Below, piece by piece: positions 995-41,018 of a stretch of DNA of 41,071 nucleotides; position 1 is the stretch's first letter; every line of letters starts with the position of its first letter. The stretch covers positions 1 to 41,071 of the IMG/VR virus record IMGVR_UViG_3300048848_000111; one strand, 5' to 3'. A model generated the notes under the pieces. It ran no database searches. It saw nothing but the letters and a program-made list of their open reading frames with translations, and was not told the DNA's origin. Made by a program: the position numbers and the translations under genes. This DNA comes from a virus (Duplodnaviria > Caudoviricetes).

Positions 995-1888
995 ATGATC
1001 GAAGAAGTGATGTCGGAATGGCGCGAATGGATGGACGCGCAGGATCTCAGCGAGCGGACGATGGCCGAGCGAATCTCGTGCATCGAGCAGTACTTCCGTT
1101 TCTCGGGCGAGAAGCCGATGAAGATGTCACCCCGGAAGATCATCCAGTTCATCGGGCGCGAGACGGCCAACGGGGAGAAGCTCGCCCGCTCGACCAAAGC
1201 GACGTACCACGCTCACATCCGGGCCTATTGCGCCTGGCTACAGCGGAGCGGACAGCGGAAGGATGACCCGTCGGCGATGACACCGCGGCCGAAGCGAAAG
1301 AAGAGCCTGCCGCGACCGATTCGCGACAATCAGCTCGTCAGCCTTCTGCGCGCGGCGAACCGCCGACGCACTCGCGTATTCATCCTGCTCGGTGCGCTGG
1401 CGGGGATGCGAGTGCACGAGATCGCGAAGATCCACGGACGCGACATCGACCTCGTCAACATGACGCTCACCATCACGGGGAAGGGCGAGAAGACCGCCGT
1501 CATCCCGCTACACCCCGTGCTCGCCGAGGAAGCCCTGCGGTGGCCCCGGAAAGGTTACTGGTTCCCGAACTACGTCAACAACCGGCACGGCAAAGCGGGC
1601 ACCTCACACATCCGCGGTCACGCCGTCACGCAAGCGATCGGCGACGCTATGCGGCGCGCTGGCTTCGACGGAAAGCCCCACCAGCTGCGTCACTGGTTCG
1701 GGTCGTCGCTCCTGAACGGTGGGGTCGACCTGCGAATCGTGCAGGAGCTGATGCGGCACAGCTCCCCCGCTACCACGGCCATCTACACCGAAGTCCACAT
1801 CGAACAGACCACCGCCGGCATTCACACACTCCGCGTCCCGGTGAGCATCTTCGGCGACCACGGCGAGGAGCTGCCACTGGCCGCGTAG
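995..1888 (+). CDS. int: Tyrosine integrase (297 aa, apparently without an arm-binding domain)
   Basis: Catalytic set GMRVHE (R), GKGEK (K), PHQLRH (HxxR), LMRH, TTAIY (Y); C-terminus ELPLAA. Confidence 0.95.
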   Translation: MIEEVMSEWREWMDAQDLSERTMAERISCIEQYFRFSGEKPMKMSPRKIIQFIGRETANGEKLARSTKATYHAHIRAYCAWLQRSGQRKDDPSAMTPRPKRKKSLPRPIRDNQLVSLLRAANRRRTRVFILLGALAGMRVHEIAKIHGRDIDLVNMTLTITGKGEKTAVIPLHPVLAEEALRWPRKGYWFPNYVNNRHGKAGTSHIRGHAVTQAIGDAMRRAGFDGKPHQLRHWFGSSLLNGGVDLRIVQELMRHSSPATTAIYTEVHIEQTTAGIHTLRVPVSIFGDHGEELPLAA

Positions 1889-1961
1889 CCGTGTCGGTGG
1901 GCGGCGACTAACATCGGCTGTGCGCGGGCCGGCGCGCTCCCATCGAGAGGAGCGGGGCGGG

Positions 1962-2273
1962 ATGCTCGGCAGCGGGCCTATCAGAATCGGGCAGCACGAG
2001 TGGGTGCTCGTGCGCAACAACCCACGATTCCCCGCCGCCCTCGTACGCCGGCTTCACCCGGGTACGAGCCTCGAGCACTACCGCGTCGTCACGTTCACGC
2101 TCGACCCCACCGAGCGGCGGCTGATAGGTCGCTACACCACGCTCGAGGCGGCCGATCGGGCTGTGCGATATGCGCTCCCCACGAACAACGTGCGCCCGGA
2201 GCTGAACGGCTACGGCGCATACGAGAATCGCCCTCACCCACCGACGACAGAAGAGCCCCGGCCCGGCCTGTGA
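1962..2273 (+). CDS. Hypothetical protein (103 aa)
   Basis: GAGGAG RBS at about 1947-1952; ORF ends in the convergent terminator. Confidence 0.65.
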   Translation: MLGSGPIRIGQHEWVLVRNNPRFPAALVRRLHPGTSLEHYRVVTFTLDPTERRLIGRYTTLEAADRAVRYALPTNNVRPELNGYGAYENRPHPPTTEEPRPGL

Positions 2274-2291
2274 AGGCCGAGCCGGGGCTCT
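2252..2291. terminator. Bidirectional terminator between the integrase operon and the lysis genes
   Basis: 18-bp stem with one imperfect pair, agagccccggcccggcct-gtga-aggccgagccggggctct, between convergent genes. Confidence 0.8.
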
Positions 2292-2309
2292 GAGGTATTG
2301 CGGCCGTGC

Positions 2310-2364
2310 GCTACGCGTCTCGGTGGCCGGCGGCCACGACGCGTCGTGCTCGAGCGCGACGCTA
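2310..2364. repeat. ACGCGT palindrome array, copy A
   Basis: ACGCGT at 2313 and 2339 in the form ACGCGT-N7-GCCGG-N8-ACGCGT, then CTCGAG and a degenerate ACGCTA at 2359. Confidence 0.6.
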
Positions 2365-2367
2365 CGG

Positions 2368-2883
2368 TTACTCGCTGGGCGGGCGCGGAGCGAGGTTCGC
2401 GGCGACCGCCTGGGCTGCAGCGCGGTTCAGTGCGTCGGAGTTCCCGAAGTCGTTGATGGTGATCGTGTGCGCGGGCTCGATGACGACGGGCACCGGGTTC
2501 GGGTTCACGTCGGGGATCTTGCCGGCCACAACCGTCAACAGGGTCACGAGCGTGGAGAGCGCGGCGGCCGGCACGATCGTCGACCATGAGACGTCCTGGA
2601 AGACGACCGCGTTGCCGATACCCACGGCGAGCGCCTGCGCGGCCGTCTTGACGGCCTTCTCGAGCAGGGTCACCCACAGGGGTACGCCGGCGCTGTCGGG
2701 GATGCCGAACAGCGACGTGAGCAGGGAGACGACGGCGCCGAGGCCCGCTGCGGACGCGATGGTCAGCCACTCGACGTCGCCGAGCACACTGCCCACCAGG
2801 TACGGGACGGCGAGGGCGATCGCGGTCTTGAGCGCGCGGAGGCCGGCGGCCTTCCACCACGCTCGGGAAAGGATGGTGTTCAT
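2368..2883 (-). CDS. Holin (tandem r1t-like domains)
   Basis: Four hydrophobic segments; the RALKT / EKAVKTAAQ motif occurs twice; last gene of the lysis cassette. Confidence 0.8.
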
Positions 2884-3533
2884 CGTTGCTCCTCCTCAGG
2901 AGTCGGTGTTTCGGTTGGGAGAGGATCGGGAATGCGGCACGGGCCGCTCGTGGTCGACGTGGTGCCGTCCGTGTACGTGATCAGCCAGGCGCCGTCGGTC
3001 TGGCACTCGGCAAGCGCGATGCCGCGGCCGTCGGCGCCGGGCGCTCCTGGCACTCCGGGAGCCCCGGGAGCGCCGTCCGCGCCGGCAGGGCCGGGCGGCC
3101 CTGCCGGTCCGTCGGTGCCGGCGCTACCGGCTGGGCCTGCTGGGCCGGTTTGTCCGGGTACGCCCATGTCGCCCTTCGGTCCGGCGGGTCCGGTCGGGCC
3201 TTGCTGGCCGTCGATGCCAGGGAGGCCTCGTGGTCCCGCGTCGCCTTGAGCGCCCGGAGGTGGCGCAGCGTTACTCACGACGTCATCGGGGCGTTCGGCG
3301 TCGGGGCGGATGCCCTCCTCGAGAAGCTGCCGGTACAGGTCCTCGGCGTTGTTCTGCGATGCCTGCAGGTCGTCGTATGAGGCTGCGAGCTGCACACGCA
3401 GGTCCGAGTTCGCGATCGCCAGGTAGATGCCACCGGCGGTGATCACGCCGACGGTGATGATGACGACGATGAAGGTCGCCACCCACCAGAAGCGGGTGCG
3501 CCGTTCTGTTCTTATTTCCGTTGATGTGGTCAC
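2880..3533 (-). CDS. Membrane-anchored collagen-like protein (lysis cassette)
   Basis: N-terminal TM helix, coiled coil, long Gly-X-Y run; GTGA overlap with the upstream stop. Confidence 0.8.
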
Positions 3534-9557: not shown

Positions 9558-12523
9558 GGTCCACTCACCCGCTCCCGGAACTGCGCCTCCGCATAGAGAG
9601 ACCGCGCGAACGCGACCTCATCCATGCCCGGAGACGGGTGGACATCGAACTGATACGACTTCGACGGGCCAGACGACGACGAGCCAGCGAAGTACGGCGG
9701 CGGCGCCACGTAGCGAGTCGCCTGGTAGGCGTTCGCCGGGATGCCCTGGCCGGAATTGATCGACTTCAGAACCGACCGGAACTGGGTTGCGTACGGCTCC
9801 TGGGTGACCTCCTCGCCGACGGAGAGGTTCATCCGCACCGAGTCCGACTTCGCCGTGCCCGGCCCGTAGACCGTGCCGCCGCCGGCATAGTTCAAGCCAC
9901 CGTCACCGAGGCCGAAGTCGACGTTCGGGTTGGTGGCGTTCACCTGGATCGTGGCGGTGCGGGTGTTGATCGCGGCCACGAACTGGTCGATCGCGTTCGC
10001 TGCAGCCGACGTGTCCGCGAGGATGTCGATCTCGCGCTGTGACGGCAGCGCGAAGACCTTGTCCGCCAGCAGCTGCACCGCGTCGGCCGAGAAGCCGTTC
10101 TGCACGGCCTGGTCGATGAGCGCCTGTTTGCTGTCGGCGAGGGTCTTCACGTACTTGTCGGTGGCGTCCTTCGCCGACATCGTCGTCTGGTCCTGCGTGT
10201 ACTGAGCCTCCGCTGCGTCCTGCGCGCTCTTCGCGACGTCGGACAGCATGGCGGCGTTGGAGGCCCCCGCCGCGGTCGCCTCGTCGAGACTCAGCGAGAA
10301 CCCGTCGAGGGTGCCCTCGAAGCCGACGAGGGTGCCGTTCGCGGCCTCGTAGGCATCCGACTGCGCCTGCACGAACGCATCCTTCTGGCGCTGCACCTCA
10401 GCCGAAATGTTGGCGAGGGACTCCTGCCAGCGAGCGTTCGACGTGACCGCGTCCTGGCCGACACCGTTGGCCTCGTTGATCTTGTCGAGCAGCTTGTCGA
10501 CCTCGTCGGCGAGCGCCGCCGCCTCGTCCGCTGCCGACTTGTAGGCGTCGGCCGCGGACTCGGTCACCGGCGCTCCGGTGCCCTGGGCGAGCTTCAGCAG
10601 CTCGGTGTAGCGGGCTGCCTCGTCGAGGTTCGCGATGTTGATGCCCTGCGCCTCAGCCACCCCGTAGAGCGCATCCTTGTAGGGCGACATGTTGTCGAGC
10701 AGCGCGCGCAGCGACTCGTCGGAACCGTCGGTTTGAGCAGCTACCGCCCGGAACGCGGCCTGAGCTTTGGGTAGGTCTTCGTCCGCGAGGGAGCCCAGGC
10801 CGCGGCCGAGCTCCTCGATTCCGCCGATCACGGCACGGTCGTTCAGCGTGAGCGAGAAGCCGGCGAAGAAGTTCTTCTGCGCGTCCGATGAGCGGTGCAG
10901 GACATCGTCGAGGTTCTCGAGCGACTCGCCGAGATCGGTAACGCCCGGCACGCCCTGGCCGCGCATGACGGTGTCGAGGATCTTCGTGCCGTCGCTCGTC
11001 GTAGTGAGCGAGTTCTTGACCTCATTGCTCGTGGCGCGGAGCGTTTCGAGCTGGTCGGAGAGGATCTTCACGCCGACCGCCGCGGCCACGAGCGCGATGC
11101 CCCACGGGCCAGTCAGGAACCGGGCCGTCGCCGCGATGCCGGTGGCCGCCTTGGCGGTGGCCGACTGCATGGTGTAGACGGCCGTCGCCACTCCGGGCAT
11201 AGTCGAGGTCGACAGCACCTGCAGTGCGACGCGGTACTCGGCGATCTTCGGCACGGCCAGCAGGAAGGCCCCGCCGCCGACACCGATGATGGCGGTCACC
11301 CCGACCAGTCCACCGATGACGGCCTGAGCGATCGGGGGCAGGTCGCCGAAGGCGTCCGCGATGGCGCCGACGGCATCAGCTCCACGCTGCACGGCAGGGA
11401 GGAACTGGTCGCCGAACGCGATCGCCGCGTCCGTGACGCGGTTGCTCATCACCTGCAGCTTCGACGCGGTCGTGTCGTACCGCTTCGCGGCCTCTGCGGC
11501 GAGCGCCGTGTTCTCGTCCCAGGCCTTCGAGCCGAGGGCGAGCGAGTTGCGGAGCAGGTCGCCCGAGTTCGCCATTCCGAGCAGCGCCTGCGAGACGCGG
11601 ATGTCGGTCTGGCCGAGGTCGGAGAGGGTCTTGAAGACGTCCCCTCCGGCGGCGTTGATGCCGCCGAGGCCTTCGATGAAGGACACGATCGCTTCGGCCG
11701 GTGCCGACTTGAACTTCGTGGCGAAGTCCTCCGCCGAGACTCCTGCCACGTCGGCGAACTTCTGCAGCTCGTCGCCGCCGTCTGAGACGGCCATAGCGAT
11801 GTCTGTCATGACGCGGGAGATCGAGGAGCCGCCGGCCTCGGCGTCGATACCGACGGAGGCGAGGGCGTTCGCGAAGGCGAGCACGTCGGCTTCGCTGAGA
11901 CCGACTACCTTGCCGGCGCCGGCGATGCGCTGCGCCATCTGGACGATGTCACGCTCGGTCGAGGCTCCGTTGTTGCCGAGCGCCACCAGCGACGCGCCGA
12001 GGTTGTCGACGTCGTCGGGCGCGGTCTGCATGATGTTCATCAGCTGAGCGATCGAGGTTGAGGCCTCATCTGCTGAGAGGTTCGTGGTCTCCGAGAGGTC
12101 GACCATCGTCCGGGTGAAGGCAAGCAGGCCGGAGCGCTGCACGCCGAGCTGCCCGGCGGCCTCGGCGATGCCGGCGAGTTCGGTGTGGGTGGCCGGCAGC
12201 TCGCGCGCCATGCTGCGGAGGCCGTCTTCGATCTCCTGCAGCTGAGCCGGGGTGCCGCTGACGGTCTTCGTGACGCCCGCCCAGGCGGTCTCCCAGTCGA
12301 TCGCGGCCTTCACCACGAGAGCGGTCGCCGCGGCGGCCAGAGCCCCGGTGGCGGTGAAGGTGGCGCCGACCCGGTTCATGGCCTGGTTCTGCTCTTCGAG
12401 CTTTACCCGGGCCGCGGCAGCCGCGCGCGTGACCTGCTCCGTCGCGCCGGCGGCCGAACGCATGCGTGCGTTGAACTCGAGCACCTGCGCGACGAGAGAG
12501 ACCTCTGTTACCCGCTCGGTCAT
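9554..12523 (-). CDS. Tape measure protein (TP901-family core)
   Basis: 989 aa, Ala-rich; WETAWAGVTKTV, LGNNGASTERDI and AEAGGSSISR motifs; central hydrophobic stretch. Confidence 0.95.
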   Translation of the reverse strand: MTERVTEVSLVAQVLEFNARMRSAAGATEQVTRAAAAARVKLEEQNQAMNRVGATFTATGALAAAATALVVKAAIDWETAWAGVTKTVSGTPAQLQEIEDGLRSMARELPATHTELAGIAEAAGQLGVQRSGLLAFTRTMVDLSETTNLSADEASTSIAQLMNIMQTAPDDVDNLGASLVALGNNGASTERDIVQMAQRIAGAGKVVGLSEADVLAFANALASVGIDAEAGGSSISRVMTDIAMAVSDGGDELQKFADVAGVSAEDFATKFKSAPAEAIVSFIEGLGGINAAGGDVFKTLSDLGQTDIRVSQALLGMANSGDLLRNSLALGSKAWDENTALAAEAAKRYDTTASKLQVMSNRVTDAAIAFGDQFLPAVQRGADAVGAIADAFGDLPPIAQAVIGGLVGVTAIIGVGGGAFLLAVPKIAEYRVALQVLSTSTMPGVATAVYTMQSATAKAATGIAATARFLTGPWGIALVAAAVGVKILSDQLETLRATSNEVKNSLTTTSDGTKILDTVMRGQGVPGVTDLGESLENLDDVLHRSSDAQKNFFAGFSLTLNDRAVIGGIEELGRGLGSLADEDLPKAQAAFRAVAAQTDGSDESLRALLDNMSPYKDALYGVAEAQGINIANLDEAARYTELLKLAQGTGAPVTESAADAYKSAADEAAALADEVDKLLDKINEANGVGQDAVTSNARWQESLANISAEVQRQKDAFVQAQSDAYEAANGTLVGFEGTLDGFSLSLDEATAAGASNAAMLSDVAKSAQDAAEAQYTQDQTTMSAKDATDKYVKTLADSKQALIDQAVQNGFSADAVQLLADKVFALPSQREIDILADTSAAANAIDQFVAAINTRTATIQVNATNPNVDFGLGDGGLNYAGGGTVYGPGTAKSDSVRMNLSVGEEVTQEPYATQFRSVLKSINSGQGIPANAYQATRYVAPPPYFAGSSSSGPSKSYQFDVHPSPGMDEVAFARSLYAEAQFRERVSGP

Positions 12524-12550
12524 TTAGGAACCTCCCGAGTAGGTGTCGTG

Positions 12551-12627
12551 CAGCGCCGGTACGGCGAGACGCGTTCGGAGTACTCGCGCGACGCGTCGCG
12601 CCCGCCGGTCAGCACGACGCGTGCTCC
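12551..12627. repeat. ACGCGT palindrome array, copy B (intergenic)
   Basis: ACGCGT at 12569, 12591 and 12617, with AGTACT at 12579 and GCCGG between the cores; aligns with 30679-30749. Confidence 0.75.
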
Positions 12628-12643
12628 TGGATGGCGCTACGGC

Positions 12644-13449
12644 TCAGTCGTCGAGGGTGGTGACGTACCGCCAGCCGGACTGGTCCTGGTGGTCGTAGTC
12701 CTCGCGGAACCGCTTCTGGGTGCGCTCCTGGTCGGCGGCGACGTGGTCGACGACGAGTTCCGTGCGCAGCCTCGGCACTATGGCCGGGTCGGTGGCGAGG
12801 TCCATGTCGATGCCGTGCGGGCCGAGGTTCTGCTCGAGCTGCGTGGACGCGAGCAGGTAGGCCACCTGCTGTGCGTCCCACTCCGGTTCGGTCTCCGTGA
12901 TGGAGTAGCCGGTCAGGTTGCCTTCCGCGTCGAAGTAGCGCGTCGTGCGGCTCGGTTCCCACCCGCCGAGGCGGCGGAGGGAGACGCCGATTTCGCGGGC
13001 GAGGCGCGCTTCGCCGCCAAAGCGACGGCCAAGGCTTTTTTTGCGTCAGCCACCCGCTTATCCGGCGCGTACTGGTTCAGGTTCAGCACGGCGTCGGTGA
13101 TCTTGTTCCGCTCGGAACCGGCGATGACCGCGAACAGGTCATCCCACTCGTCGATCTCGCCCGGCACCACGCGGGGCTTGATCTCCTCGCCGTCCTCGAC
13201 CACGACAGCGTTGTTCTTCGCGGCAAGCACGGCGACGTTACGGATGTTGTAGCCGTAGTGCCGATCCATCTCCGACTGCAGGTCGGGCGGGCACGCGGCG
13301 GTGATGTTAGCCCAGTCCTCCGCCAGCAGCTCGTAGAACTTCAGGGTGACCAGGACGCCGTCGAGAACGACCTCGACCGTGACGGAGTCGGGCGGGGTGG
13401 CGGCCTTCTGGGCTTTGCGGGCCGCGAGGGCCTCGCTGAATGCTGACAT
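12644..13449 (-). CDS. Tail assembly chaperone, long GT form produced by a -1 frameshift
   Basis: A -1 shift at GCA AAA AAA G gives an open frame KKSLGRRFGGEARLAREIGVSLRRLGGWEP...TTLDD* that joins ORF 12644-12865. Confidence 0.85.
12913..13449 (-). CDS. Tail assembly chaperone, short G form
   Basis: Between the major tail and tape measure genes. Confidence 0.85.
   Translation of the reverse strand: MSAFSEALAARKAQKAATPPDSVTVEVVLDGVLVTLKFYELLAEDWANITAACPPDLQSEMDRHYGYNIRNVAVLAAKNNAVVVEDGEEIKPRVVPGEIDEWDDLFAVIAGSERNKITDAVLNLNQYAPDKRVADAKKALAVALAAKRASPAKSASPSAASAGGNRAARRATSTRKAT
13035..13042 (-). promoter_or_regulatory. Programmed -1 frameshift slippery site AAAAAAAG
   Basis: A7G run in an otherwise GC-rich CDS, at the canonical chaperone position. 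Confidence 0.85.
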
Positions 13450-28174: not shown

Positions 28175-29362
28175 TCAGTCGCCCTTCACGTTGATGATCT
28201 GGCGGAGGGTGTGGCGGATGCTGACGAGGTCGGCGGCGTCTTCCATCACGACGTCGATCGGCTTGTAGGCCTGCGGGATCTCGTCGATGAATGCGGAGGT
28301 GTCGCGGTACTCGATGCCGACCATCGCCTCGCGGAGCTGCTCGTGCGTGAACGTCTTCCGGGCGGCGGAGCGTGAGTACTCGCGGCCGGCGCCGTGGGGC
28401 GAGGAGTGCAGCGCGGTCGCGTTGCCCTTGCCCTCGACGACGTACGAGCGGGTGCCCATGCTGCCCGGGATCAGGCCCAGAACACCCTCGTGAGCGTCGA
28501 TTGCACCCTTCCGGGACAGCCACACATCCTTCCCGTTGTGGTGCTCACGCTCGGTGTAGTTGTGGTGGCAGTTCACCCGCTCCGACTCGACGACCACGAC
28601 ACCGGTGAGGAGTTCCACCTGGTTGATGACGCGGTCCATCATCTCCTCGCGGTTCTGCAGCGCGAACTCCTGCGCCCACCGCAGCTCGGCGATGTAGCGG
28701 TCGAACTCGGCCGTGCCCTCGACGAGATACGCGAGGTCCGGGTCCGGGAGGGTGATCCAGTGGCGCTTGCAGTACTCCTGCGCGACCGTGATGTGGTGCT
28801 GGGCGAGCTTGTTGCCGACGCCCCGTGAGCCCGAGTGCAGGAACAGCCACACCCGGTCGTCTTCGTCGATGCTGACCTCGATGAAGTGGTTCCCCGAGCC
28901 GAGCGTGCCGAGCTGCAGCTCCCAGTTCGCTGCGTAGGTGTGCGGGTCGAATCCGGCCCGCACGGCCAACGTCATGAGTGCGCCGATGCGGTCACGGGTG
29001 GAGGGTGTGATCTCGGTGTTGTAGTTGCCGGCCGAGAGCGGGATGCGGGCCTCGATGCTGCGTCGCAGGTAGCTGAGGTCGCCGCCGAGGAGGGCTCGGA
29101 ACTGCGCCTCCACGAACTGCGTGCGGACGGCGATCATGCCGCAGCCGATGTCGACACCGACCGCCGCCGGCATGATCGCTCCGAGCGTCGGAATCACCGA
29201 GCCGACCGTGGCGCCCTTCCCGAGGTGGGCGTCGGGCATCAGGGCCAGGTGCGGGTGGATGAACGGCATCTCCGACGCTCGGAGCGCCTGCTCCTTCGTC
29301 TGGTCGTCGAGGATCGATGCGTAGTTCCGCAGCTTCGGCGTCACGTAGGTCTGGACTGTCAT
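28175..29362 (-). CDS. rtcB: RtcB RNA 3'-phosphate/5'-OH ligase
   Basis: MPDAH, GVDIGCGM, GTLGSGNHFIE, HSGSRG, HHNY, RKGA, IPGSMG and HGAGR motifs all intact. Confidence 0.95.
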   Translation of the reverse strand: MTVQTYVTPKLRNYASILDDQTKEQALRASEMPFIHPHLALMPDAHLGKGATVGSVIPTLGAIMPAAVGVDIGCGMIAVRTQFVEAQFRALLGGDLSYLRRSIEARIPLSAGNYNTEITPSTRDRIGALMTLAVRAGFDPHTYAANWELQLGTLGSGNHFIEVSIDEDDRVWLFLHSGSRGVGNKLAQHHITVAQEYCKRHWITLPDPDLAYLVEGTAEFDRYIAELRWAQEFALQNREEMMDRVINQVELLTGVVVVESERVNCHHNYTEREHHNGKDVWLSRKGAIDAHEGVLGLIPGSMGTRSYVVEGKGNATALHSSPHGAGREYSRSAARKTFTHEQLREAMVGIEYRDTSAFIDEIPQAYKPIDVVMEDAADLVSIRHTLRQIINVKGD

Positions 29363-29417
29363 GGGGAATCTCCTTCATGGGGTAGGTGGTGCAGCTGCGG
29401 CGAGCGCCGCGGGTCGT

Positions 29418-30029
29418 TCAGGTGAAGAGGCGGTCGACGAGCAGCTCGTTCATGCGGGCGAGGTAGCGGGTTTCCGCCTGCGCCGGCGACCAACCGACGA
29501 TGTCGACGCCGAGGGGCTGGTGGGTGTCGTCGATCGCCCACCGCTGCGACGTCGGGAACAGGGCTGCGCGCTCGTCGAGGAGGATGCGGGTGTCAGCGTC
29601 GAGCACGGCCTCCGGGATGGGCCACCGGATGCCGGCCCACGCGGCGATCGCGAGCTGCACACTGTCTTCGACGTCGACATAGTCGGGCATGTGGCGTTTC
29701 AGCGGCCGGATCATGTCGCCGACGTAGGCCTCGGAGGCGTCGTGCAGCAGCGCCCAGAGCGCGTGTTTCGGGGCCACGGCGAAGCTGAGGTGCACGCAGT
29801 GCTCGGCCACGCTGTAGAACCGGGAGACGTGCCCGTTGTATCGGCACTGCAGCGCGAGCGAGTGGGCGATGTCGACGCCGCGGATGTCCTCGACAGCCGG
29901 GTCCATCGGGTAGAACTTCGCGCCCGAGAACGTCTGCATCCAGTCGCCGGCGCGCTCGAGCGGACGCAGCGCCGCGGCGAGCTCCTCACGGGTGAGCGGC
30001 CGGGAGTCGGCCGCGCCCGGCCCGCTCAC
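29418..30029 (-). CDS. HD-domain phosphohydrolase (YfbR/YfdR-like nucleotidase)
   Basis: DIAHSL...CRYNGH..FYSVAEH...LLHDASEAYVGD motifs. Confidence 0.88.
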   Translation of the reverse strand: MSGPGAADSRPLTREELAAALRPLERAGDWMQTFSGAKFYPMDPAVEDIRGVDIAHSLALQCRYNGHVSRFYSVAEHCVHLSFAVAPKHALWALLHDASEAYVGDMIRPLKRHMPDYVDVEDSVQLAIAAWAGIRWPIPEAVLDADTRILLDERAALFPTSQRWAIDDTHQPLGVDIVGWSPAQAETRYLARMNELLVDRLFT

Positions 30030-30460
30030 TTGCCGCTCCTCAGCAGCTCGCGGCGGTTCAGGATTCGGCCGAGCTGGCGCACGTCCTCGGCGTCGAGCCC
30101 GTAGGTAGCAATCGCATGGTGTGTCTCAACGAGGGGCCACACGTCACGCGGAGCGACGCCGAGCTTGCCCAGTTCCACAGCCGAGGCGAGCAACTCCTGC
30201 GCCTGAGCGTGCGAGACGGTCACGGCACGGAGTTCCGTCCAGAGTTCCGCGATCTGGGCAGCTGCGGCGAGCGCGATGCGACTACGCCGAGCTACGATCC
30301 GCTCGACGACGAGAACGATGACGAGCCCCAGCAGGAAGATGACAGACGTCGCGCCTGTGAACGTATCTCCGACGACGAAGGATGTGATCGCCGCGGCGAG
30401 GAGGGCGAGAACGGCAACCCACCCGAGGAGCGTGGTGAGTCTGGGGAGGATGCGTTTCAT
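30026..30460 (-). CDS. Two-TM membrane protein
   Basis: ATGA overlap; two hydrophobic helices. Confidence 0.7.
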   Translation of the reverse strand: MKRILPRLTTLLGWVAVLALLAAAITSFVVGDTFTGATSVIFLLGLVIVLVVERIVARRSRIALAAAAQIAELWTELRAVTVSHAQAQELLASAVELGKLGVAPRDVWPLVETHHAIATYGLDAEDVRQLGRILNRRELLRSGK

Positions 30461-31257
30461 GAGGTGCCTTTCGATAGGAGCGCCCCGGACGCGAACACGT
30501 CCCATGCGCGCTGGACGCCACCCGAGCCCGGGAAGACGTCAGTGAACTCGTCGTGCGGTTGCGCGCCGAGCAGGTCGAAGATCCAGCGGCAGAACACCGC
30601 CGGCTTGGCGCCGACCACCCGGAACGGGTCAGTGCGGCGGGGGCGGGCCGTGTAGATCAGTGAGTCGATGCGTCGTGGAGCGCCGGCGCTCGGCGACGCG
30701 TCAGGAGTACTAGCGCGACGCGTCGTGGTCGCCGGCGAGCGCGACGCGTCCGCGGCCGCGCGTCGCGACGCGTCGCTGTCGGCCGCGAGCTGCTCAGCAC
30801 TACGCGTGCTCGAGTCGACCGCGACGCGTCCTCCCCAGTAGACGACAGGTTCCCAGGCGCTCAGCGGGCCCGCGCTACGCGTCGGCCGGTCACCCCGGTG
30901 CCAGGCCGCCACGCGTACACCTGGTGGGCACGACGCGAGAATCTCGGGGAGCGCCCGGGCCGAGGTAGAGAGCGCCCAGCCGTCGTACGTCGACAGACTA
31001 CGGATCAGCTCGGGGTGGTCGACCTCGCCCGCGAAGTCAGGGTGGTCGCCGTAGTACCGCTTCGAGAGGCCCGGATACGGCGGGTCGGCGTAGGCGAGGC
31101 GTAGCGACTCACCGTGGCCACGCGCGACGGGTACGCCGACACCCGACACGAACCGGTGACGCGCCTGGCGGCACCGCACCGAGCAGCAGATCGCGTCAGC
31201 TCGCAGCGTCCCCGGGATGGGGCCACGGCACCACGCGCACGTCTTCGACTCGGCCAT
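30457..31257 (-). CDS. Beta-class amino (N6A/N4C) DNA methyltransferase with an N-terminal Zn finger and an internal repeat array
   Basis: CAWC...CCSVRC finger; motif IV DPPY; C-terminal GAKP...DVFPGSG (motif I); low-complexity DAS/TRR insert between them. Confidence 0.75.
   Translation of the reverse strand: MAESKTCAWCRGPIPGTLRADAICCSVRCRQARHRFVSGVGVPVARGHGESLRLAYADPPYPGLSKRYYGDHPDFAGEVDHPELIRSLSTYDGWALSTSARALPEILASCPPGVRVAAWHRGDRPTRSAGPLSAWEPVVYWGGRVAVDSSTRSAEQLAADSDASRRAAADASRSPATTTRRASTPDASPSAGAPRRIDSLIYTARPRRTDPFRVVGAKPAVFCRWIFDLLGAQPHDEFTDVFPGSGGVQRAWDVFASGALLSKGTS
30666..30830. repeat. ACGCGT palindrome array, copy C (inside the methyltransferase gene)
   Basis: ACGCGT at 30696, 30718, 30744, 30768, 30802 and 30824; ATGCGT at 30668; outliers at 30877 and 30911. 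Confidence 0.85.
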
Positions 31258-33281: not shown

Positions 33282-34234
33282 CAGCTCACTCCTCCCCGGG
33301 ATCGTGCTCGAGGCCCAGGGCTTCGGAGTCGATCAGGTCTTGCATCCAGCGCTCGTGCTTCAGCCGGGCGGTGCGGCAGGCCCAGCAGTTCTTCGTGGTG
33401 CCGTTCGGCTGGTGCTCGGCGCAGACCGAGGGATTCGCGAGGAGGTCGCGAGCGGTTCCCTCTCCCGACCCCGCCCCTTCCCCCCGACCGCCCGCTCCCG
33501 CGCGCGCTCCCCTCCCCTCTACCGCGAGCGTGTCGCGCGGGACTCGCGAGGCATTCGCGAGCGAATCGCGAGGCGGCGGGGGAGGGATGCTCGAGTCGGT
33601 CGGCTTGTCCACCCGCTGCCACCCCGGCCAGTCCACGACCGAGTAATAGATCCGGTCGCCGGCGTCGTACAGCTGGATGTATCCCTTGTCGTCGAGGATC
33701 ACCAGGTGCTCCTCGATCGCCGCCTTCGTCACCGACTCCTCGAGCGGCCACAGCGCCGACACCAGCAGCACCGGGTTCGCTGACTCGCACCCGAAGTCGT
33801 CGGCGTACATCATCAGGCCGAGGAAGCTCATCCGCACGGGGAGCGGGAGCAGCAGAAAGCTCTCCTCCTGGAAGAACCTCGGCTTCACTGTTCGGTTTCG
33901 GCTGATTGCCATTGCGCGCTATACCTCTGCAAATCGTTCGGATGGCCCTGTCGAGATCGGCTCTGCTCACTCGGAAGCACTCGGTGAAGCCCCGGCCGCC
34001 GGGAAGGATGCTCATCGACTCCACAGCCGAGGCGAAGGCCCGCTCGAAGCTGCCGCCCACTTCGGCGAGCGCCGCTCTCTCGTAGGTGGCGGGGGTGTCG
34101 CGGAGGAGTGCGACGACGCGGCCACCGGTGGCGGTGAGGTTCATGACGCGGTGCATGCGCCAGGCGCGGCCGACCTTGAGGATGCCGCGGTCGGGCCAGT
34201 AGATGGCGTAGAGCATTGCTGTCTTTGGGATCAT
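33281..34234 (-). CDS. GIY-YIG/T5orf172-like protein; its frame stays open across the whole replication gene
   Basis: LYAIY...ILKVG...R...E...GFTECF in the first ~110 aa; ATGA-coupled start; the C-terminal 200 aa are shadow-like. Confidence 0.55.
   Translation of the reverse strand: MIPKTAMLYAIYWPDRGILKVGRAWRMHRVMNLTATGGRVVALLRDTPATYERAALAEVGGSFERAFASAVESMSILPGGRGFTECFRVSRADLDRAIRTICRGIARNGNQPKPNSEAEVLPGGELSAAPAPRADELPRPDDVRRRLRVRVSEPGAAGVGAVAARGVGDEGGDRGAPGDPRRQGIHPAVRRRRPDLLLGRGLAGVAAGGQADRLEHPSPAASRFARECLASPARHARGRGEGSARGSGRSGGRGGVGRGNRSRPPRESLGLRRAPAERHHEELLGLPHRPAEARALDARPDRLRSPGPRARSRGGVS
33286..33912 (-). CDS. Phage replication initiator-like protein with a C-terminal CHCC Zn motif
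   Basis: R.RTVKP.FF...F.GL..YADD.G...W..WQRVDKP N-terminal domain; VCAEHQPNGTTKNCWAC. Confidence 0.75.
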   Translation of the reverse strand: MAISRNRTVKPRFFQEESFLLLPLPVRMSFLGLMMYADDFGCESANPVLLVSALWPLEESVTKAAIEEHLVILDDKGYIQLYDAGDRIYYSVVDWPGWQRVDKPTDSSIPPPPPRDSLANASRVPRDTLAVEGRGARAGAGGRGEGAGSGEGTARDLLANPSVCAEHQPNGTTKNCWACRTARLKHERWMQDLIDSEALGLEHDPGEE

Positions 34235-35874
34235 GCTGCGGCTCCCATTCCGAGAGACTCGGCGCCGACGCCGATCAGGTCACGCGCGTTGGGCGGTGTG
34301 ACTGCGTTGCCGGCCGCGGCCACCAGCGCGCGGTTCGAAACTGGCTTGTCACGGTCGGGGGGCTGCCATTTGTAGTCGGCCGGGAAGGCCATCCCGGCGG
34401 CGACCTCGTGGGGGCGGAACATGCGGAACAGCACCTCGGGCACCATCTCCATCGCGGCGGCCAGGTCGGCCGGCGTCACCTCACGCTTGGACTGTAGGAG
34501 CGACACGTTCCCGCCCGTGGTCAGGGTGCGGAGATACTCGGTAGCGAGCGTCGTCATCTCGGCGCCGCCCTCGTTGTGGCGGTGGATCAGCGCCTTCGAA
34601 GTGTCGTTCGCCGTGATCGTCGACAGCGGGTCGTCGATCGAGCGAGGCCGGTATTCGAATCGGCGGTCGAGGATGAATGGGTCTTGCACGAGCGCGTGGT
34701 GGTTGCCGCCGGCGGTGAAGGTGCCTGCGGGCTCGGTTACGGATCGGGCGGTGCTCGTGCCGTACATCTCGGCGATGAATGGGTGCTGTGCGAGCGCCGT
34801 CTCGAGGCGAGTGGTCTGTGTGCGGAGCGGACCTTCGAGGGGCCAAGCTTCCTTGCCTTCTCGGCCCTCGACCGGGATCGCGAGCGCTTTGGAGTTCGTG
34901 GTGTGGAGCGCCCGGAGCGGATCCTCGAGCGGCCAGGCGCGATAGTAGGCGTCGGCGGAGCCGTAGTGGAGGTGGTTCGGGTCGGCTGCGTCGTACGTGT
35001 TCCCTGCCGCTTCGATCGCCAGTGGTCCCCAGTAGCGAGCGATGCCGGCGGCGACGCGGAGGCGGGTCTTCGGCTTGAGTCGATCGCCGATGCGCTCACC
35101 GGGGATCGACCAGTCGATCGCCTCGATCGCAGGGAGCCAGAACGGCTCGACGACGTGGCTGCAGCGCGAGCAGCAGTAGAGGTACGCCTGGCGGTAGCGG
35201 CCGACCTCGCGCTTCGGCTTCCAGGACTGCACGGCTTCCGCGACCGAATCACAGCGCGGGCAGTAAGCGCGCGGGCGCACCGTGCGGTCGAGGTCCGGGG
35301 ACTTCTCGCGCTCAGGCCAGGCCACGATGTATATGCGATCGCGAGACTGCGGCGCCGGCAGGCCGTACGCCTGAGCATGCATTGAGTTCACCGACATCAC
35401 CCGGAACCCGTAGCCGAGCGCCCGCAGCTCCTGGCGCCAGACCGTCCACGCCGTGCGGTACTTCGCCTGCGTCGCGATGTCGACGACGTTCTCCACGATC
35501 ACCAGCCGGTAGCGGTGGTATTCGATGAAGCGGAGCACATCGAACATGAGCAGGCGCGAGCGCGTCTTCGCGTCGTCGGACAGCGGATCTTCGAACAGGC
35601 CCTCGTCGATCGCCGGGGCTGCAGCGCCGCTCGCCTGCGACCACTTGGTGCACTCCGGCGACGCCCAGAGGATGTCAGTCTTCGGAAAGAAGCTCGGCCG
35701 CTCCTGGTGCAGATCGACCACGGCGTGATCGGTGGTGGGGTGGTTCAGATTGTGAATGTCCGTGACGACCTTGTTGTGGTTCGCCGCAATGCGGACGTGA
35801 ACGCCTGGGATCTGGATGGCGCCCGTGGACGAACCGCCGGCGCCGGCGAACAGGTCGGTGAGCGAGAGCGTCAT
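34231..35874 (-). CDS. C5-cytosine DNA methyltransferase
   Basis: DLFAGAGG (I), SPEC (IV), ENV (VI), QSRDR (VIII), GNAV (X). Confidence 0.93.
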   Translation of the reverse strand: MTLSLTDLFAGAGGSSTGAIQIPGVHVRIAANHNKVVTDIHNLNHPTTDHAVVDLHQERPSFFPKTDILWASPECTKWSQASGAAAPAIDEGLFEDPLSDDAKTRSRLLMFDVLRFIEYHRYRLVIVENVVDIATQAKYRTAWTVWRQELRALGYGFRVMSVNSMHAQAYGLPAPQSRDRIYIVAWPEREKSPDLDRTVRPRAYCPRCDSVAEAVQSWKPKREVGRYRQAYLYCCSRCSHVVEPFWLPAIEAIDWSIPGERIGDRLKPKTRLRVAAGIARYWGPLAIEAAGNTYDAADPNHLHYGSADAYYRAWPLEDPLRALHTTNSKALAIPVEGREGKEAWPLEGPLRTQTTRLETALAQHPFIAEMYGTSTARSVTEPAGTFTAGGNHHALVQDPFILDRRFEYRPRSIDDPLSTITANDTSKALIHRHNEGGAEMTTLATEYLRTLTTGGNVSLLQSKREVTPADLAAAMEMVPEVLFRMFRPHEVAAGMAFPADYKWQPPDRDKPVSNRALVAAAGNAVTPPNARDLIGVGAESLGMGAAA

Positions 35875-36380
35875 CAGACAGCGCCGTTCATGTCGCGGAC
35901 GACGAGAACGCCAGCACCGGGCTGGCGGTGAGCTGCGCGTCGGATTGCGGTTACGGCGCGGTCGGTGAATCCGGCCATGGCGAGGGGCATGCTCGATCGC
36001 TTGCCAGCATGGCTGGGGTGCACGAACGCGAAGTCGCGCATCATCCAGATGATGTCGGCGGCGCGCAGCATCCGGTCGAACCAGGCCGCGTTCGCGACAG
36101 GCCCAAGCCAGATGCCGGCGCGATGAGCGATGAAGCGATCAGCCCACGGGGTGGCGTTGCTGAACGGCGGGTTCAGCCAGACGAAACCCTCCCACGGGGA
36201 AGTGAGCCCGTCATCCTCTCGGGTGTACCGCCTCGCAGCGGGCACGAACGTGTCAAGGCCGATCGGGCTGGCGGGGTCGAGGTCGAAGGATTCGGCGAGC
36301 GCGTCGAACACCCATTGCGGGGTGAAGCGCTCATCGGTCTCAATGCCCTGAATGGGCACGTCGAACAAGGTCTCGTTCAT
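35874..36380 (-). CDS. Phage N6-adenine DNA methyltransferase
   Basis: TPQW.F...FDLDPAS...DGL..PW.G.VWLNPPFS motifs. Confidence 0.88.
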   Translation of the reverse strand: MNETLFDVPIQGIETDERFTPQWVFDALAESFDLDPASPIGLDTFVPAARRYTREDDGLTSPWEGFVWLNPPFSNATPWADRFIAHRAGIWLGPVANAAWFDRMLRAADIIWMMRDFAFVHPSHAGKRSSMPLAMAGFTDRAVTAIRRAAHRQPGAGVLVVRDMNGAV

Positions 36381-38253: not shown

Positions 38254-38564
38254 GCTGCCGTCCTCCGCGTTTGGGCGTACATGGCGGCGAGTTGCACCTG
38301 CTGCTCGAGGTAGAGGCAGAGCGCGGCGGCGGCGTCGTTCGTCGCGCCGATGTCCGCGAGAGCGTTGCGGGGCACGAGCTTCTCGCCGCGCCACTGCACG
38401 GGGGAGTCGTACGCCTTCAGCATTTCCACGAGCGAGTCATTCGGAAGCGTCGCGGCGACCAGGTCGCCGGCTACGAACCACTCGGTGCCGTCGATGGTGA
38501 CGCGGCGTACGTCCTTTCCGGCGTGGCGTTCGACGGCGGTCAGCTTGCAGTTGAGGTTCGTCAC
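38250..38564 (-). CDS. BRO-N domain protein (antirepressor-like, short)
   Basis: VRRVTIDGTEWFVAGDL motif; GGAGG RBS; GTGA overlap. Confidence 0.7.
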   Translation of the reverse strand: MTNLNCKLTAVERHAGKDVRRVTIDGTEWFVAGDLVAATLPNDSLVEMLKAYDSPVQWRGEKLVPRNALADIGATNDAAAALCLYLEQQVQLAAMYAQTRRTAA

Positions 38565-40668: not shown

Positions 40669-41007
40669 ATGAGCATTCAGCCTGTTGACCGTCGCCGACC
40701 GCAGTTCGGCCTAACGCACCGACTTGTTCTCGCGCGCGAAGTCGCCGGGCTCGAGCAGGTCGACCTCGCCAACGCCCTCGGCGTGGGCCGCTCCACCATC
40801 AGCAATTACGAGCGAGGGATCGGCAAACGGCCGATCAATAAGCTGCTCCTGAACGCGTGGGCTGTGGCCTGCGATGTGGATGTGGAGTGGCTGAAGACTG
40901 GCGAAACAGAAGACCCCCACCCGGGTCCGGATGGGGGTATTAGCGGGCCGCCTCCGGGAATCGAACCCGGGACCTATTCATTACGAGTGAATCGCTCTGC
41001 CGACTGA
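40669..41007 (+). CDS. XRE-family immunity repressor, prophage form (112 aa)
   Basis: RLVLAREVAGLEQVDLANALGVGRSTISNYERG HTH_3 and VDVEWLKTG motifs; runs through the att core and stops inside the tRNA antisense. Confidence 0.92.
   Translation: MSIQPVDRRRPQFGLTHRLVLAREVAGLEQVDLANALGVGRSTISNYERGIGKRPINKLLLNAWAVACDVDVEWLKTGETEDPHPGPDGGISGPPPGIEPGTYSLRVNRSAD
40903..40938 (-). terminator. Phage-supplied terminator for the reconstituted tRNA, inside the repressor CDS
   Basis: On the minus strand ACCCCCAUCCG-GACC-CGGGUGGGGGU followed by CUUCUGUUUC, 7 nt beyond the tRNA 3' end. Confidence 0.65.
40945..40984. repeat. Right att core
   Basis: Identical to 162-201. Confidence 0.97.
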
Positions 41008-41018
41008 GCTAAGGCGGC
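40946..41018 (-). tRNA. tRNA-Thr(CGT), reconstituted after integration
   Basis: GCCGCCT/AGGCGGC acceptor stem, GCTC/GAGC D stem, ATTCA-CTCGTAA-TGAAT anticodon arm, CCGGG-TTCGATT-CCCGG T arm. Confidence 0.97.

Follow-up and report, generated by a model that had tools for sequence, protein, structure and literature searches.

A zinc-finger, methyltransferase-like gene family of phages and integrative elements associated with restriction sites tagged at a fixed nine-base register

Phage genome and gene context

The window, that is, the whole stretch of DNA analysed, is a complete 41-kb virus record of a temperate siphovirus-like phage carrying integrase, holin, terminase, portal, capsid, tape measure, repressor, C5 methyltransferase and Dam-like methyltransferase genes. 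On its minus strand, at 30457..31257, lies the gene considered here, P0001, encoding a 266-residue protein that joins a zinc finger to a minimal beta-class amino-methyltransferase fold. A CxxC...CSxxC finger and a conserved RQARHRF helix (residues 7-41; 31135..31239, minus strand) form a putative tag-binding module, followed by the catalytic motif IV, DPPY (31075..31086, minus strand), invariant among 36 aligned homologues, and by the SAM-binding motif I, DVFPGSG (30520..30540, minus strand), beyond which there is one helix and no motif II strand. The finger and the two motifs in beta-class order had been noticed in the first-pass annotation, and the open reading frame bears this out.

Directly downstream of P0001, at 28175-30029, are genes for an RtcB-like RNA ligase and an HD-type nucleotide phosphatase, and the C5 and Dam-like methyltransferase genes at 34231-36380 bring the methyltransferase-type genes of the phage to three. 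A minus-strand tRNA at the record end (40946-41018) adjoins the repressor gene and is possibly the attachment site. CACGTG is missing from the whole window (0 versus 9.3 expected), and GGGCCC, CCATGG, GGATCC, GAGCTC and CTAG are strongly avoided in it.

Predicted protein fold

As in beta-class enzymes, motif IV precedes motifs X-I in P0001, with DPPY at residues 58-61 and DVFPGSG at 240-246. The structural model (mean pLDDT 77.8, falling below 50 in a disordered loop at residues 174-193) matches 1g60 (Z 10.6, rmsd 4.4, 147 aligned) and 6pbd (Z 9.7, rmsd 4.6, 156 aligned), Foldseek matches it to 8urk at E 1e-4, and a minimal beta-class fold is predicted. The model ends one helix after motif I, with no strand beyond residue 240, and a motif II-like pattern occurs in 0/141 homologues; because the motif II and III strands are missing, leaving the SAM pocket incomplete, SAM use is not assured. 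Motif I is kept in finger-bearing proteins as in finger-less relatives. No partner gene that might complete the pocket was found: the 150 loci have no conserved neighbour, and tyrosine recombinases (20) and primase-polymerases (17), labels read from sequence, occupy varied positions.

A homodimer was predicted for the homologue P0039 with a score of 0.84 (best control 0.00); of the solved pairs, 21 of 30 attained the mark, compared with 0 of 23 among single chains. The runs agree in at least 70% of contacts at pLDDT of at least 79, and the score may reflect likeness to solved beta-class dimers. A YacG-like identity of the finger was set aside as a weak match (Z 3.5, 44 aligned). Searches of PHROGs, Pfam, NCBIfam and PADLOC returned no match for P0001, and homologues gave only weak PADLOC matches (E 0.01-0.08). 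The variable region of the protein is a DNA-encoded repeat that shrinks to 32-40 residues in many homologues.

Repeat arrays and tagged sites in the window

ACGCGT comprises two overlapping copies of a tag, ANNYGTC(G), and this half-site is the working motif, since end repeats retain the inner half only. Six ACGCGT copies lie inside the gene, at 30696, 30718, 30744, 30768, 30802 and 30824, as the first-pass annotation had reported; when the window's 23 copies were placed at random, more than four within 130 bp occurred in 0/20,000 trials, so that the cluster exceeds chance. The two distant copies described there were likewise recovered with their spacings, both between ORFs. The first (ACGCGT at 12569, 12591 and 12617; spacing 22 and 26) is identical to 30672-30749 at 62/78 bases over 12545-12622 and lies in a gap that follows a small ORF, with its end at 12644, and precedes the start of the tape-measure gene at 12523. 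The second (ACGCGT at 2313 and 2339) is an inverted copy, with 33/38 bases identical between 2313-2350 and 30712-30749, and lies after the holin stop at 2368. A terminator scan of 1800-3000 found none, and the arrays have no Rfam match. Selection acts on the DNA rather than the protein, because the family encodes 232 of its 274 in-frame DAS triplets as GACGCGTC.

The in-gene panel (30668..30829, unstranded) holds six tagged sites, in each of which the ninth base past a tag, +9, falls within the site: GCCGGC at 30682-30687 (+9 at 30683 and 30686), AGTACT at 30706-30711 (30708), CGCCGGCG around 30731-30736 (30733 and 30734), GCGGCCGC at 30752-30759 (30758), CGGCCG at 30780-30785 (30783) and CTCGAG at 30809-30814 (30814). 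Two further tagged sites are overprinted on coding sequence: GTCGAC with its tag at 30978..30994 (plus strand; A at +9, 30993) on conserved core codons (LSTYDG), and TGGCCA with its tag at 31115..31132 (minus strand; C at +9, 31117) on the post-finger linker. The intergenic panel copy before the tape-measure gene (12541..12622, unstranded) contains RCCGGY at 12555-12560 (+9 at 12556 and 12559), AGTACT at 12579-12584 (12581) and GCCGGT near 12604-12609 (12606 and 12607), and the single intergenic unit after the holin gene (2313..2344, unstranded) holds GCCGGC at 2326-2331, in register with either of its tags (2328 and 2329). A solo tag adjoins ACCAGGT at 38445..38465 (plus strand; C at +9, 38460); the solo cases at 38445, 19622 and 21306 are within the chance level of about 2.8 per genome.

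A fixed register between tags and restriction sites

Near finger-bearing genes GACGCGTC occurs 294 times versus 8.9 expected, and units of two facing tags reach 2.6 per kb near the gene versus 0.08 per kb elsewhere, their spacers ranging from 14 to 26 nt and mostly measuring 14, 16, 18 or 22 nt. The enriched spacer words are GGATCC, AGGWCCT, GCCGGC/CGCCGGCG, CTCGAG, ACCWGGT, AGTACT, TGGCCA, CGGCCG and similar, and a 6-bp palindrome is present in 318/468 spacers whereas shuffles average 185. In 220 homologous loci, a Type II restriction site lies in the DNA next to a tag, and the Biopython list names these sites as those of BamHI, Sse8647I, NaeI, SgrAI, XhoI, SexAI, ScaI, MscI, EagI, PstI, SalI, PvuII, SacI, AatII, PvuI, NotI, BtgI, SacII, SrfI, ApaI and StuI. 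Single genes resemble cloning polylinkers, e.g., that of genome G018 (NotI+ScaI+SexAI+BamHI+BtgI+EagI+PstI+PvuI+XhoI). In Curtobacterium phage Elener, one panel lies inside the gene and another between genes. AvaI-type CYCGRG, GRCGYC and RGGWCCY readings were rejected because only fully specified words occur. Tagged copies are more often nested 8-mers (GCCCGGGC, 39/48 tagged versus 568/3552); ACCGCGGT, which has no enzyme in the Biopython list, is found in 24/109 tagged versus 239/7789 untagged copies.

The distance from tag to site is specific to each site: 4 for GGATCC, GTCGAC and CTGCAG, 5 for AGTACT, TGGCCA, CGGCCG and CAGCTG, 6 for GACGTC and ACCWGGT, 7 for GCGGCCGC and 8 for CCRYGG. All of these offsets converge on a single base, +9. 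Among 1118 unit strands it is A or C in 89%, compared with 10-64% for the remaining 12 positions. For GGATCC and GTCGAC, the register seen most often is the methylation position of BamHI and SalI, respectively. Near the gene 695 of 1141 paired tags are in register (other shifts 11-92); with registers fixed on the first 150 loci, 320/561 tags were in register in 70 held-out, new metagenome loci (other shifts 7-62). In 56 control loci without the gene, 4/102 paired and 53/2913 solo tags fit the register, level with other shifts, and among clusters at 60% identity it held in 12/16 with finger-bearing members versus 0/8 finger-less ones. Pooled counts overstate independence, since the loci share ancestry, and the cluster, held-out and control tests are the most reliable in this respect. 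Left out before counting were 9/159 loci duplicated in core sequence, 10/80 held-out loci that were duplicate or unusable, L256 among the controls as a distant homologue, and sites with fewer than three expected copies.

That the arrays are neutral palindromic or REP-like repeats, or low-complexity protein filler, is accordingly an extremely improbable reading. The units are indeed GC-rich palindromes in a disordered loop, and unrelated GACGCGTC tandem repeats exist in phages lacking the gene, but off-centre, site-specific offsets sharing one fixed base, their replication in held-out loci and the whole-contig test described below all contradict it. Five host genomes of 3.9-11.6 Mb, moreover, contain only 0-2 strict units each, situated either at the gene or some 23 kb away in a region of lysis genes, and the repeats are therefore not common host REP-like elements.

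Both strands are in register in 382/632 informative units, as two-strand protection needs. Units in register on the left only (132) or right only (118) use the two sides equally (p=0.41), and in-register solo tags number 249 sense and 245 antisense. Since spacer length varies while each tag keeps +9, the tags act independently, and the panels work as double-stranded DNA, not RNA. An RNA hairpin guide was rejected: registers are strand-symmetric, with neither wobble bias (G-U 55 versus A-C 46) nor within-locus covariation (p=0.19).

Panels tend towards one site of each kind, with 1074 distinct types versus 972 +/- 11 in shuffles (0/2000 as high), and their content varies with host group. They lie in disordered loops and in intergenic DNA, are overprinted even on conserved codons, and have been copied to distant places as whole cassettes (G026). 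One-of-each composition, equal use of strands in units and solo tags, dependence of content on host group and residence inside a gene without a conserved partner would all suit a DNA-templated, programmable methyltransferase, in which one active site of the dimer would hold an opened panel unit whose strands select matching sites elsewhere, to be methylated in the same register. The panel would then be a heritable, double-stranded template library of specificities, copied by one small enzyme onto the element. Structural precedents are offered by M.BceJIV and CcrM, both top fold matches: M.BceJIV is reported to bind two duplexes as a dimer (PMC11380664), and CcrM to open a bubble of four base pairs (PMC6787082). 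This is nevertheless judged unlikely, on whole-genome evidence given below.

Panels take further forms. Lower-GC loci (L005, L054, L058, L062, L069, L075 and L079) have additional +9 sites, e.g., GGTACC and GATATC. A very large stand-alone panel lies about 5.2-5.5 kb upstream of the gene in L134, a locus with 11 tagged site types, and another panel (L443, 1420-1720) lies in a Microbacterium lysis-gene region beside an SRAP-like reading frame, about 23 kb from the gene. Genomes G033, G030 and G032 carry mostly solo tags by sites genome-wide (34, 17 and 14 places) rather than arrays; the 34 separate places in G033 have differing tags.

Association of finger, gene and tags across the family

Among 7997 scored candidates, 3472 matched as homologues, and the family, finger-less relatives included, forms 1732 clusters at 50% identity; its carriers are prophages and integrative elements from several phyla, Actinomycetota among them, and named close homologues are mostly from Microbacterium and other actinobacteria. 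Homologues carry the same repeats in various places: the N-terminus, the variable loop or the C-terminal tail. Tags and Cys finger occur together, in keeping with the first-pass annotation: at least two tagged sites accompany 123/135 finger-bearing homologues (6/135 have none), versus any in 0/15 finger-less ones, once eight degenerate fingers missed by the finger regular expression had been reassigned by eye. The finger-bearing group occupies one side of a single branch (81/86), and the association therefore represents one evolutionary event. As finger-less relatives share the minimal core and carry no tagged sites, finger and tags arrived together, probably once.

The finger-less relatives, of about 170 residues (L049, L051, L052, L057, L063 and 10 others), have the same truncated core with variable loops and look like an uncharacterised minimal methyltransferase-like family. 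The homologues P0133 and P0244 are fused to long Cys/His-rich repeats at their C-terminus, and L256 (G072) has a distant homologous domain in a 493-residue frame next to a C5 methyltransferase match.

A reverse search by DNA pattern returned 42 stretches, comprising 15 with the gene in the locus, four on contigs known to carry it, two on the gene-carrying G004, four polylinker-like stretches on fragments 15-37% complete without a match, and 17 judged by eye to be unrelated repeats, five of which were checked and all lacked the gene. Unrelated GACGCGTC tandem repeats with 4-16 nt spacers were seen in phages L165, L174, L184 and L188; the L184 record lacks the gene, and such repeats are possibly replication origins.

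Tagging and site avoidance in whole genomes

Whole contigs of 31 gene-bearing phages contain 16.4 tagged sites versus a background of 2.8, compared with 1.4 versus 1.5 in 20 gene-less phages (the test drew on 29/36 gene-bearing and 20/27 gene-less records, for most of them on 40 kb, with the window and Elener added). Dispersed copies co-occur with the gene. Of the surviving copies of strongly avoided sites, 65/278 are tagged overall and 27/227 outside the gene (left unmasked in 2/31 genomes), versus 0 and 2/227 at shifted registers and 1/143 in controls. All four CTGCAG in G026 and all three GGATCC in G028 are tagged. Some genomes list sites of which no untagged copy is left, and genomes with a complete purge of a site retain 2-4 tagged copies. 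That tagged copies survive where untagged ones have been purged, with tags by sites at many places, fits a writer that protects in cis.

No relief of avoidance was found for listed untagged sites in the 31 contigs (difference 0.014, p=0.42), with p=0.81 (viral) and p=0.04 (genome set) in 20-kb loci, and untagged sites are not enriched near tagged ones (1947 observed versus 1897 expected). For GGATCC, avoidance is stronger in the genomes with this site on their list (mean log2 ratio -1.59 versus -0.09). Because listed sites are no less avoided elsewhere, these results argue against genome-wide protection, by a test that is blunt, as the gene moves often and controls differ in GC content and host. 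The earlier proposal that the array loads a low-specificity methyltransferase onto the whole chromosome is consequently not supported; its DNA-level selection, finger co-occurrence and dispersed copies stand, and the restriction-site spacers at +9 had been overlooked.

The same results weigh against the templated enzyme, in which listed sites would be relieved of avoidance and enriched around tagged copies. Furthermore, 0/25 genomes with tagged CCRYGG list all three of its duplex variants, any variant of a degenerate site seeming sufficient, and sites are listed by genomes that have no untagged copy to which a template could apply.

Agreement with published methylation positions

Registers were compared with rows of Tables S3 and S4 of Blow et al. 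2016 (PMC4752239). In those rows, +9 coincides with the published methylation position for 12/14 sites, nine in the commonest register (CTGCAG, CAGCTG, AGTACT, TGGCCA, CGGCCG, GGGCCC, GGWCC, GCCGGC and GAGCTC) and three in the second (CTCGAG, GGATCC and AGGCCT), and disagrees for GACGTC and CCGCGG. This gives moderate support to +9 as the methylated base, since each site offers about three candidate bases. Part of the second GGATCC register may come from the idle tag in 16-nt units.

Agreement with host positions in these rows is also what a sensor of host methylation would show. Host methyltransferases would mark the sites, the protein would read the flipped +9 base in its DPPY pocket, and one of each site would amount to an OR gate for the presence of any restriction system in the host, controlling the element or the enzyme. 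The apparent sufficiency of any variant of a degenerate site, the nested 8-mers, the truncated SAM pocket and the lack of avoidance relief, which a sensor predicts, are in keeping with it. Nonetheless, this too is a minority prospect, about on a par with templating: there is no effector or partner gene, motif I is equally conserved in finger-less relatives and the truncation common to both, genomes completely purged of a site keep tagged copies of it that would be costly if unprotected, and dozens of dispersed tagged sites exceed a sensor's need.

Far less probable is a bait or trap, by which tagged sites with a non-cognate or one-strand mark would detain the restriction enzymes of the host or attract its methyltransferases to incoming DNA. 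Solo tags are common, and some registers differ from the cognate position in the published rows, but most types are present in one copy, no local effect is seen, and the double register is favoured, which removes the hemimethylated substrate.

Proposed tag-directed protection in cis

The best explanation, given an even chance of being right, is a tag-directed amino-methyltransferase that protects tagged sites in cis. The zinc finger of the predicted dimer would dock on the DNA tag ANNYGTC(G), and the A or C nine bases past it, whichever is there, would be methylated; docking on the tag, transfer of a methyl group (giving m6A on A and m4C on C) and protection of the site are inferred steps. Host restriction sites are placed so that the +9 base falls inside them, which would make tagged sites uncuttable. 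Specificity would thus sit in the DNA beside each site and not in a recognition domain, so that tagging becomes an alternative to purging.

The in-gene panel would comprise the enzyme's own substrates, one per common host system, and would titrate the enzyme against host methylation at the +9 base; gene loss would be costly because the panel would then be cuttable, and retention of the gene would be enforced. Self-titration and enforced retention by the panel form the weakest step of the model. Cis protection alone gives no reason to add sites and under-explains the one-of-each panel; a pure cis writer would account for one-of-each composition, overprinting and cassette copying only through self-titration or enforced retention.

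Comparison with known systems

The family shares with the beta-class enzymes M.MboIIA, CcrM, M.BceJIV, M.RsrI and M.PvuII the DPPY-then-FxGSG order, the fold (Z 7.7-10.6) and the predicted dimer, but differs in lacking motif II/III strands and any Pfam, NCBIfam or PHROG match, in its N-terminal Cys finger and in a probable target base outside the bound motif. In box C/D snoRNA, TIGR-Tas and CRISPR systems, repeats alternate with spacers and a constant motif sets the distance to the target base. The panels resemble these guide arrays by analogy, in repeat-spacer layout and fixed ruler, but show no strand bias, wobble bias, arm covariation or nuclease partner, and their spacing varies over 14-26 nt. 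Mycobacteriophage stoperators are asymmetric sites oriented with transcription; the in-register solo tags divide evenly between sense and antisense. There is no likeness to REP/RAYT elements either, given the few host-chromosome copies and the absence of an adjacent conserved HUH transposase.

Phage DNA sites that require methylation marks also underlie the control of Mu mom by host Dam, with one motif compared with the roughly 20 site types that share a fixed register in the panels. P1 pac is likewise under host Dam control (PMC12707154). The same text describes multispecific C5 methyltransferases of Bacillus temperate phages, in which an array of recognition domains gives one enzyme many specificities. 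One phage enzyme is here similarly tied to many specificities via an array, but what is arrayed are DNA sites next to a constant tag, and the enzyme belongs to the amino class, not C5; P0001 has amino-class motifs and neither the C5 fold nor tandem protein recognition domains. M.EcoGII and Mu Mom are described there as orphan modifiers of phages that stand alone, show little specificity for sequence and serve in anti-restriction (PMC12707154); action here appears confined to +9, and that text mentions no DNA tag or site panel for them. The system would thus work like a multispecific anti-restriction modifier with a guide-like ruler, yet it departs from those families as from REP/RAYT and stoperators. 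A full-text search of the literature, its coverage ending short of subscription papers and bioRxiv supplements, found no description of this layout.

Significance

Altogether, the DNA-encoded interface with host restriction-modification is real, spans the family and is apparently undescribed, and its mechanism is a proposal. In each of the three leading readings, knowledge of about 20 host restriction systems is encoded by a mobile gene in DNA, at the level of single bases, and not in protein. For sites without data, modification positions can be predicted from the +9 rule, which possibly also points to unknown specificities (e.g., ACCGCGGT). If the tag directs m6A or m4C to a chosen base, it would offer a compact tool to bring DNA through restriction barriers in laboratory actinomycetes; if the DNA-programmed version is true, changing a 14-22 nt spacer would reprogramme the enzyme, which would be a new kind of programmable DNA modifier.
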